This document shows, piece by piece, positions 3,305 to 4,517 of a DNA stretch of 30,300 nucleotides (the first letter of the stretch is position 1; the number at the start of each line of letters is the position of its first letter). This stretch comes from Anaerolineae bacterium (GTDB taxonomy: Bacteria; Chloroflexota; Anaerolineae; SSC4; Amarolineaceae): the NCBI GenBank assembly GCA_041912075.1, contig JAYRNS010000208.1, forward strand, positions 1 to 30,300, written 5' to 3'. The notes below the pieces were generated by a model, which did not search any database, was not told the origin of the DNA, and saw only the letters and a list, made by a program, of their open reading frames with translations. The position numbers and the translations under genes are program-made.

Positions 3305-3823
3305 TTGCATACACCATCCGGGCGCCATCAACGACTCCAGGTGCGACCTTCGCCGGACGCACGCAACACCCTGCAGCACCTGTACAAAACGGTGCCCCTG
3401 TGGAAGGTCGTGCGCAACTGGGTTGTGATTTATACGGCACGCTACGTGCCCTGGCTCAACGTGAAACGTCGCATGTACCAGTGGCTGGGTGTGCGGGTCG
3501 GCAAGGATGCCTCGGTGGCGCTGGCCGTGGTGCTCGACGTCTTTTTTCCGGAAGAGATCACGATCGGCCCCAATACGATCGTTGGCTACAACACGGTGAT
3601 CCTGGCTCACGAATATCTGCTGCGCGAATGGCGCAAGGGGCCCGTGGTCATTGGGGCCAACGTCGTGATCGGTGCCAACTGCACCATTCTGCCAGGGGTC
3701 GTGATCGGTGACAATGCCGTCGTATCGGCCATGAGCCTGGTCAACCGCGACGTGCCACCCGGTGCGGTGGTCGGCGGTGTACCCATTCGTTTGATCGGGG
3801 GTGGAGAAATCGACACACCATGA
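3305..3823 (+). CDS. yvoF: hexapeptide-repeat O-acetyltransferase, YvoF-like (heptaprenylglyceryl acetyltransferase family)
   Basis: Left-handed beta-helix repeats (IGPNTIVG, IGANVVIGANCTILPGVVIGDNAVV); segments VPLWKVVRN...ARY and GYNTVILAHEYL resemble B. subtilis YvoF as recalled; TTG start 1 nt after the upstream stop. Confidence 0.82.
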   Translation: MHTPSGRHQRLQVRPSPDARNTLQHLYKTVPLWKVVRNWVVIYTARYVPWLNVKRRMYQWLGVRVGKDASVALAVVLDVFFPEEITIGPNTIVGYNTVILAHEYLLREWRKGPVVIGANVVIGANCTILPGVVIGDNAVVSAMSLVNRDVPPGAVVGGVPIRLIGGGEIDTP

Positions 3824-3848
3824 GAGATGAACGGAGGGAAAAAAGGCT

Positions 3849-4517
3849 ATGTTGACCGTGCCGCGCCCGCTGCAGCGCGTGTTCGATCTCTTTGACATCC
3901 AGCCGATCGCCTGGTTGATCATCTTTCTCAACCTGGTGGGTTTTGTCGTGGGCACGATCTATTGGTACGGCCCTCACTTTCTGGTCGGCAAGGATGGCCT
4001 CGGTGCGCCCTCACCCTGGTTGTGGATCTTCATCCCCGACTGTCCCCTGTTTGCGTTCTTGTTTGTGATTGCCTTTGTCGCACTGCGCCGCCATAAGAAA
4101 TGGACCTGGTTCTACACCATCACCGCCATCGGCTTGATCAAGTACGGCGTGTGGACGGTGACGTTCTGGGTGACGTACTGGCTGCGCGGCGCACCGCTGA
4201 CGGTCGAAGGTGTCGTGATGACCGTTGCCCATCTCGGTATGATCGTCCAGGGGGTCTATCTGTTGACACAGTTCAGGGCCCAGTTGCGTGATGTGTTGAT
4301 TGCCCTGGCCTGGTTCGTGCTGAGTGACTATGTCGATTACGGCCTGGGTGAGTACCCGCGCTTTTACCCATTGGTGCCGCTGTGGTTGATGCAGTGGCAT
4401 ACCATTGCCATGACCTGGATTCTGGTGGCGTGGGTGGCTTTCCTCTCCCTGCGTAAAGCACCCGTGACGCAGGCGGCCAACAAGAAACCGTCCGAGGTGG
4501 CGCCGACGGCATCATAA
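3849..4517 (+). CDS. ypjA: DUF1405 integral membrane protein, YpjA/LhaT-like
   Basis: About 6-7 hydrophobic helices with YWY, FIPDCP, IKYGVW, AHLGM and SDYVDY motifs matching the recalled YpjA pattern (VPDSP, KYGLW, SHFAM, NDVIDY). Confidence 0.78.
   Translation: MLTVPRPLQRVFDLFDIQPIAWLIIFLNLVGFVVGTIYWYGPHFLVGKDGLGAPSPWLWIFIPDCPLFAFLFVIAFVALRRHKKWTWFYTITAIGLIKYGVWTVTFWVTYWLRGAPLTVEGVVMTVAHLGMIVQGVYLLTQFRAQLRDVLIALAWFVLSDYVDYGLGEYPRFYPLVPLWLMQWHTIAMTWILVAWVAFLSLRKAPVTQAANKKPSEVAPTAS

Follow-up and report, generated by a model that had tools for sequence, protein, structure and literature searches.

Organization of the yvoF-DUF1405 locus

Two adjacent genes, one for a YvoF-like acetyltransferase and one for a membrane protein of the DUF1405 family, were analyzed in a stretch of 30,300 nucleotides (nt) from an Anaerolineae bacterium (assembly GCA_041912075.1, contig JAYRNS010000208.1, positions 1 to 30,300), which is referred to as the window. 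The source genome is a metagenome-assembled genome (MAG) of 4.3 Mb in 940 contigs with a completeness of 85%. Its nearest relatives were found to be Candidatus Amarolinea aalborgensis and Anaerolineae MAGs, which agrees with the probable Chloroflexota origin proposed in an earlier note on this DNA. The following features make up the locus:

3305-3823 (+): YvoF-like hexapeptide (left-handed beta-helix) O-acetyltransferase of 172 amino acids (aa), TTG start
3833-3838 (+): Shine-Dalgarno sequence GGAGGG, within the gap between the genes, 10 nt 5' of the DUF1405 ATG
3849-4517 (+): DUF1405/LhaT-like integral membrane protein of 222 aa, ATG start, six transmembrane (TM) helices, Cys65/His128 dyad

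Both open reading frames (ORFs), which had been placed on the same strand, were confirmed at these coordinates and are separated by an intergenic gap of 25 nt. The TTG start of the YvoF-like gene was accepted because R10 and L11 downstream of it are invariant in 19 homologues, the archaeal ones included, and no alternative start codon besides TTG is found in this frame upstream of R10/L11.

In Bacillus subtilis, PcrB makes heptaprenylglyceryl phosphate, YvoF acetylates its dephosphorylated form, and YpjA (LhaT) transfers the acetyl group to the N-termini of lipoproteins, a role of LhaT that is supported by genetics and in vitro reconstitution (Komazin et al., mBio 2025, PMC12345273). The genes pcrB, yvoF and lhaT are located at three separate loci in this organism. 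According to the STRING analysis of the same study, PcrB and LhaT co-occur in Firmicutes and Euryarchaeota; a neighborhood of YvoF and LhaT is not reported there, and Chloroflexota are not mentioned. The pathway and the unlinked loci, as given in the earlier note, match this publication.

Family assignment of the two proteins

The product of 3305-3823 matches the Pfam families Hexapep and Hexapep_2. The NCBIfam model NF058585 (YvoF) scored 216.3 bits, followed by the next family with 50 bits; 47 bits were obtained with the galactoside acetyltransferase model and 38.5 bits with the maltose acetyltransferase model. The gene is the only one of its kind in the source genome, where the other hexapeptide genes reach at most 48 bits against NF058585. 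An AlphaFold2 (AF2) model folded from a 19-sequence alignment contains the strands of the beta-helix. In a Foldseek search of this model against Swiss-Prot, the top match was B. subtilis YvoF (O34993; 55% identity, TM-score 0.81), followed by the YvoF homologues of Staphylococcus aureus and then by maltose and galactoside acetyltransferases (MAT and GAT) with 22-27% identity. H102 in the motif AHEY and 47 other positions are invariant in the 19 homologues. The protein belongs to the YvoF clade and is closer to YvoF than to other acetyltransferase families, in accordance with its first description as a hexapeptide acetyltransferase of YvoF type rather than a generic MAT or GAT.

The product of 3849-4517 was identified as a DUF1405 protein by a hidden Markov model (HMM) search with Pfam PF07187 (110.2 bits with a gathering cut-off of 25, profile positions 1-155 of 160). 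Its AF2 model (pLDDT 92.7) consists of six helices at residues 18-46, 64-80, 86-112, 119-139, 146-165 and 178-201. The top Foldseek match of this model is B. subtilis YpjA (LhaT, P54392), with TM-scores of 0.72/0.85 and a root mean square deviation of 2.0 Å over 184 residues, and the third structural match is YwaF. The DUF1405 assignment made earlier from the letters therefore holds at the level of both the family model and the YpjA-like fold.

The protein retains all residues conserved in the family. Position 65 is a Cys in 119 and a Ser in 65 of 185 members, and position 128 is a His in 184 of 185. Cys65 is located at the start of the helix 64-80 (TM2) and His128 within the helix 119-139 (TM4). 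According to a rule published for the ATGY superfamily, the nucleophile on TM2 varies and the His on TM4 does not (bioRxiv 10.1101/2022.07.06.498872); the Cys65/His128 dyad satisfies this rule. According to the model, the conserved residues Cys65, His128 and D160/D163 would be located near the outer leaflet, since positive charges occur in the tail and in two of the loops, 80-85 and 143-148 (positive-inside rule).

Conservation of gene order and co-occurrence

A yvoF-like gene directly upstream of a DUF1405 gene on the same strand was found in all eight Amarolinea-like loci, which also share the context HIT, acyl-CoA dehydrogenase, reductase, pair and carboxyltransferase. The same order was identified in 12 of 13 sampled Chloroflexaceae genomes, Oscillochloris trichoides DG6 among them; in the 13th genome the two genes are 2.1 kb apart with two ORFs between them. 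It was also present in 48 of 58 further loci from Chloroflexaceae, Roseiflexaceae, Thermoflexus and Caldilineaceae and in all 12 loci from Thermoanaerobacterales, archaeal and Anaerolineae MAGs, including two Thermoanaerobacterales MAGs. For the archaea, 151 genomes of the phylum of the Methanocellales were sampled, 60 of which carry the genes. In 36 of these 60 the order is as in the window, in two the genes are convergent and in 22 they are unlinked; 20 of the 22 unlinked loci were read, and these are mostly high in G+C content and probably haloarchaeal.

The two families also occur together. Among 201 sampled Chloroflexota genomes, DUF1405 was found in 15, and a YvoF-like protein (at least 150 bits) in the same 15 and in one further genome with a completeness of 92%. 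In the 151 archaeal genomes, the sets of genomes with YvoF and with DUF1405 are identical (60 of 60).

The related genomes in the linkage counts are not independent of each other; the pattern is seen again and again, in many lineages of archaea and in at least three families of Chloroflexota. The adjacency of yvoF and DUF1405 is far beyond chance and recurs in genomes of three phyla. The genomic data, namely operon order and co-occurrence (15 of 16 and 60 of 60), support a functional coupling of YvoF and DUF1405. The survey across phyla suggested in the earlier note thus led to recurring linkage in Chloroflexota, archaea and Thermoanaerobacterales, and its argument that the linkage points to a conserved two-step coupling is borne out by the widely conserved order and the near-perfect co-occurrence.

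In a FastTree phylogeny of 184 DUF1405 sequences, the Chloroflexota copies form one clade (50 rows, SH-like support 97) that is set apart from the archaeal clades of operon type. This points to a long residence in the phylum and not to a recent transfer. Clustering of the neighboring genes across 17 loci did not reveal a conserved third gene that might be a candidate carrier synthase. The neighbors are lineage-specific: propionate genes in the Amarolinea-like genomes, menE-menA-menB, IclR and CitMHS in the Chloroflexaceae, and cobyrinate-amidase-like genes in the Methanocellales.

Some loci of this survey deserve a separate remark. In Chloroflexaceae, convergent menE, menA (UbiA prenyltransferase) and menB genes adjoin one side of the pair, as in locus L045 (8941-12488) and equivalently in L042-L046 and L052-L054, and the other side is occupied by the genes of an IclR regulator, in divergent orientation, and of a CitMHS transporter. 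This tie to polyprenyl metabolism may be a coincidence. The yvoF-DUF1405 loci in MAG records with the titles Singulisphaera sp. and uncultured Klebsiella sp. are like those of Roseiflexaceae and other Chloroflexota, and these bins are probably mislabelled or mixed. In CP059258, the chromosome of the Anaerolineae isolate SSC4, the HIT, yvoF-like and DUF1405 genes and two downstream genes are among many that are split into two frames. A decay of the locus was considered and set aside, as frameshifts affecting that many genes point to indel errors of the assembly.

Search for PcrB/GGGPS

The presence of the enzyme family that makes the carrier in B. subtilis was examined using Pfam PF01884. Single-genome searches covered the source genome and 13 further carriers of the pair, namely eight Amarolinea-like genomes, Thermoflexus, Roseiflexus, Caldilineaceae and two Thermoanaerobacterales genomes. 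No match above the cut-off was obtained in the source genome, in which a 21-bit match turned out to be the tryptophan synthase alpha subunit and was rejected. PcrB was likewise not found in the eight Amarolinea-like genomes, one of them a closed chromosome, nor in the Thermoflexus, Roseiflexus, Caldilineaceae and two Thermoanaerobacterales genomes. It was also missing from 31 Chloroflexaceae genomes (23 of high quality, including an isolate genome with a completeness of 99% in seven contigs) and from the 201 sampled Chloroflexota genomes (162 of high quality). Oscillochloris trichoides DG6, a cultured carrier of the pair, likewise has no PcrB. The model detects the family where it is expected, with approximately 243 bits in two Methanocellales MAGs and matches in the B. 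subtilis and archaeal controls.

A second model, TIGR01768, reached a maximum of 27 bits with a cut-off of 113 and did not reveal PcrB/GGGPS, and a tblastn search with the GGGPS of Methanocellales yielded no homologue (best E-value 0.52). Weak matches of 30-51 bits were obtained for glycerol-1-phosphate dehydrogenase (Pfam Fe-ADH_2), a model that is also positive in 13 of 14 control genomes. In Chloroflexota, a complete trio of PcrB, YvoF and LhaT was therefore not encountered: the YvoF-like and DUF1405 proteins are present, and PcrB was found in 0 of 201 Chloroflexota genomes.

The earlier note had suggested that this lineage makes prenyl-glyceryl ethers and had itself regarded the lack of a PcrB/GGGPS homologue as evidence to the contrary. 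With two HMMs and tblastn finding none, this part of its interpretation is not supported, and the part concerning the family identities, the B. subtilis pathway, the lineage and the coupling of the two genes stands. In summary, it is quite probable that the pair constitutes a coupled acetyl-lipid module that works independently of PcrB.

Lipoprotein machinery

Lipoproteins are the known acceptors of LhaT, and the genes for their maturation were searched. Lgt is present in several copies in the source genome, and Lsp was found in all five relatives searched. Lnt stayed below the cut-off in the source genome and in all 201 sampled Chloroflexota genomes, so that a mutual exclusion of Lnt and the pair is not informative. 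Two predicted lipoproteins are encoded in the window:

16544-17656: PotD-like binding protein, lipobox LVAGC
28452-29894: tandem-DsbA protein, lipobox LAAC

Both had been named as candidate substrates on first reading of the DNA, and their lipoboxes are consistent with this role. By analogy with B. subtilis, the lineage of the window may make N-acetyl lipoproteins.

Proposed pathway and alternative explanations

By homology, the YvoF-like enzyme would use acetyl-CoA at the cytoplasmic face for the O-acetylation of the free glycerol hydroxyl of a membrane lipid. The small and neutral acetyl-lipid would then get to the outer leaflet. There, as suggested by the fold and the conserved residues, the DUF1405 protein could accept the acetyl group on Cys65 with the assistance of His128 and hand it to an extracellular acceptor. 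By analogy with B. subtilis LhaT, this acceptor would most likely be the free alpha-amino group of the lipidated N-terminal Cys of lipoproteins, for which the support is best. Such an acceptor is plausible because of the role of LhaT in B. subtilis, the presence of Lgt, the presence of Lsp in relatives, the lack of Lnt matches and the two lipobox proteins of the window.

The carrier is not expected to be heptaprenylglycerol made by PcrB, because no PcrB/GGGPS was found in the phylum sample. Since YvoF enzymes are promiscuous and PcrB is absent, an ordinary glycerolipid, for instance a monoacylglycerol, a diacylglycerol or, through its head group, phosphatidylglycerol (PG), is more likely than a prenylglyceryl ether. 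The YvoF of Haloferax volcanii acetylates geranylgeranylglycerol as well as monoacylglycerol, and acetyl-archaeol and acetyl-archaetidylglycerol occur in vivo with no known role (Kropp et al., MicrobiologyOpen 2022, PMC9179154), which makes a non-prenyl carrier plausible. For the full statement, a two-step acetyl shuttle that is independent of PcrB and ends at lipoproteins, the arguments on both sides are evenly balanced.

Several observations weigh against this pathway. The YvoF-like protein is below the curated cut-off of NF058585 (216 vs. 300 bits), a score that none of the sampled homologues from Chloroflexota or archaea attains. The DUF1405 protein scores 74 bits with the LhaT model NF052528, compared to a cut-off of 255, and shares 26% identity with the characterized LhaT, so that the same acceptor cannot be assumed. 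Acetyl-heptaprenylglycerol (Ac-HepG), the proven donor of LhaT, can apparently not be made by the known route in these genomes, and an acetylated glycerolipid from Chloroflexota was not reported in the literature searched. Lsp was not found in the source genome, which is 85% complete. Some bacteria with PcrB and LhaT homologues make no N-acetyl lipoproteins (PMC12345273); the genes therefore do not guarantee the chemotype. Finally, the activities of other ATGY superfamily members are the hydrolysis of lipids (AIG1/ADTRP) or the transfer of acyl groups between lipids (TMEM164, GPC1) (bioRxiv 10.1101/2022.07.06.498872).

The activities of these ATGY members and the low identity to LhaT would fit a cycle restricted to lipids, in which the YvoF-like enzyme acetylates head groups and the DUF1405 protein either passes the acetyl group on to a different lipid or cleaves it off, thereby tuning the membrane surface. 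The accumulation of acetylated archaeol and archaetidylglycerol in haloarchaea (PMC9179154) also favors this explanation. However, the sole DUF1405 member tested acetylates lipoprotein N-termini in vivo and in vitro (PMC12345273) and an N-acetylated archaeal lipoprotein is known, so that a lipid-only cycle is considered unlikely.

The shuttle could also operate as proposed and deliver the acetyl group to another surface acceptor, for example peptidoglycan, a polysaccharide of the cell surface or a glycan of the S-layer, in parallel to other extracytoplasmic O-acetylation systems. The authors of the mBio study raised the possibility of other extracellular reactions of Ac-HepG and pointed to gene-bearing bacteria without N-acetyl lipoproteins (PMC12345273), and the majority of Chloroflexota have Lgt and Lsp although the pair is missing from them. 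On the other hand, no cell-wall or polysaccharide gene adjoins the pair in the contexts examined and there is no precedent within the family, which leaves this acceptor rather improbable.

A pathway of the B. subtilis type with an acetylated polyprenyl-glyceryl ether would require an ether-forming enzyme that is non-homologous to PcrB/GGGPS or too diverged to be recognized. The YvoF-like protein shares 55% identity with the enzyme of B. subtilis that acts on heptaprenylglycerol, polyprenyl diphosphates are available, and the pair often adjoins menE-menA(UbiA)-menB in Chloroflexaceae. The UbiA gene, however, lies within the men cluster on the opposite strand, and no third gene is kept beside the pair across lineages. 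PcrB remained unseen in the 201 phylum genomes, the 31 Chloroflexaceae and the eight Amarolinea-like genomes with a model that scores the controls, and TIGR01768 and tblastn were likewise negative. An ether carrier is accordingly very doubtful.

A chance adjacency of a generic sugar (maltose or galactoside) acetyltransferase and an unrelated membrane protein, to which the position of the pair in a propionyl-CoA cluster where neither gene belongs might point, can practically be dismissed in view of the YvoF score (216 vs. 47 and 38.5 bits) and is refuted by the conserved order and the near-perfect co-occurrence across phyla and domains.

Returning to the PcrB-independent module, a broader generalization is put forward tentatively: YvoF and DUF1405 may represent a self-sufficient, ancient two-gene system for extracellular acetylation in archaea, Chloroflexota and some Firmicutes, which could use any glycerolipid with a free hydroxyl as carrier and to which the PcrB-made heptaprenylglycerol of the Bacillales would be a lineage-specific addition. 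In that case the carriers would be acetyl-archaeol in archaea and an acetyl-acylglycerol or acetyl-PG in Chloroflexota, and Chloroflexaceae, Roseiflexaceae, Caldilineaceae and Amarolineaceae would bear N-acetylated lipoproteins, for which the Bacillales are the only group known to date.

The published pathway is based on one organism with scattered genes, and the carrier lipid was taken as its defining feature. The unit that is kept across two domains is the YvoF-DUF1405 pair, usually as an operon, and this includes whole lineages without PcrB. The occurrence of the pair without PcrB reopens the question of the physiological acetyl donor and offers a possible purpose for the acetylated lipids of archaea. 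It also predicts a modification of lipoproteins or of the surface in Chloroflexota, a group that includes filaments abundant in wastewater (Ca. Amarolinea) as well as phototrophs in culture (Oscillochloris trichoides).

Genomic context of the pair in the window

Two co-oriented genes precede the pair:

1098-2261 (+): AcrC-like acyl-CoA dehydrogenase
2251-3303 (+): MDR-type reductase, directly upstream of the YvoF-like gene

They overlap by 11 nt, and the YvoF-like gene starts 1 nt past the stop of the reductase gene, which is the tight gene run noted before. A sequence scan of the run and of the 25-nt gap revealed no promoter-like or terminator-like consensus. The dehydrogenase and reductase genes probably share a transcription unit with the pair in Amarolinea-like genomes. 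This context is kept only there and was not found next to the pair in Chloroflexaceae or archaea. Runs labelled as activated-sludge metatranscriptomes contain the region; their contigs have no direction, and the libraries possibly include DNA.

The pair is located inside a propionyl-CoA cluster (1098-3303 and 4623-12198). The members of this cluster are the AcrC-like acyl-CoA dehydrogenase, the MDR reductase with weak matches to acryloyl-CoA and crotonyl-CoA reductase, the beta subunit of propionyl-CoA carboxylase (mmdA family), a biotin carboxylase and a methylmalonyl-CoA mutase. Between the carboxyltransferase and biotin carboxylase genes (6288-8481), an ORF of 177 aa without a family match and a protein of 550 aa are encoded; the latter matches an HD-GYP-type cyclic di-GMP phosphodiesterase (NosR-family model, 122 bits). 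Further downstream, three ORFs of 163-286 aa without a Pfam match (13215-16457, -) surround the gene of a Peptidase_M23 protein (13722-14750, -), and this group adjoins a pot-type ABC transporter operon.

Directly 3' of the DUF1405 stop codon, an 81-nt palindromic element was identified (window 4512-4594). It has a perfect stem of 17 bp and a folding energy of -37 kcal/mol (z = -5) and lacks a U tract. The element is repeated in dispersed form, and other contigs of the source genome contain at least 20 copies that are nearly full in length and 83-94% identical. The metatranscriptome contigs all break within it, and one contig connects 4512 to 4594 without the element, so that it represents a strain-variable insertion. 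In several relatives, Ca. Amarolinea included, the DUF1405 gene ends instead a few bases 5' of the start of the carboxyltransferase gene.

Comparison with known systems

The locus shares with the B. subtilis pathway an enzyme of the YvoF clade (55% identity) and a six-helix DUF1405 protein with the same fold and dyad, as well as Lgt and Lsp without Lnt in the clade of the window. It differs in that PcrB/GGGPS is lacking in the Chloroflexota sample, so that the donor Ac-HepG is not expected, and in that the genes form an operon, whereas those of Bacillus are found at separate loci (yvoF with lgt). The membrane protein also differs from LhaT, with an identity of 26% and a score below the equivalog cut-off. 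New here is a version of the pathway that is encoded in an operon, in a phylum for which the pathway was not reported in the literature searched, and without the presumed carrier-making enzyme.

The archaeal YvoF (PMC9179154) likewise represents the family outside the Bacillales and uses several derivatives of glycerol as substrates, an ester lipid among them. In the archaeal sample it always occurs together with DUF1405, often directly upstream as in the window. In contrast to the Chloroflexota, archaea possess GGGPS, and their isoprenoid ether lipids serve as the natural substrates.

MAT and GAT/LacA have the fold, a left-handed beta-helix, and the site for acetyl-CoA in common with the YvoF-like enzyme. 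These enzymes are distinguished from it by the identity of 22-27%, by the model scores (47 and 38.5 vs. 216 bits) and by having no conserved membrane partner gene.

The DUF1405 protein has in common with the ATGY superfamily (AIG1/ADTRP, TMEM164, GPC1, YwaF, YpjA) the core of six TM helices, the nucleophile on TM2 (Cys65) and the invariant His on TM4 (His128). The other branches of this superfamily use long acyl chains and lipid acceptors, and the DUF1405 branch is the only one that is tied to the transfer of acetyl groups to protein.

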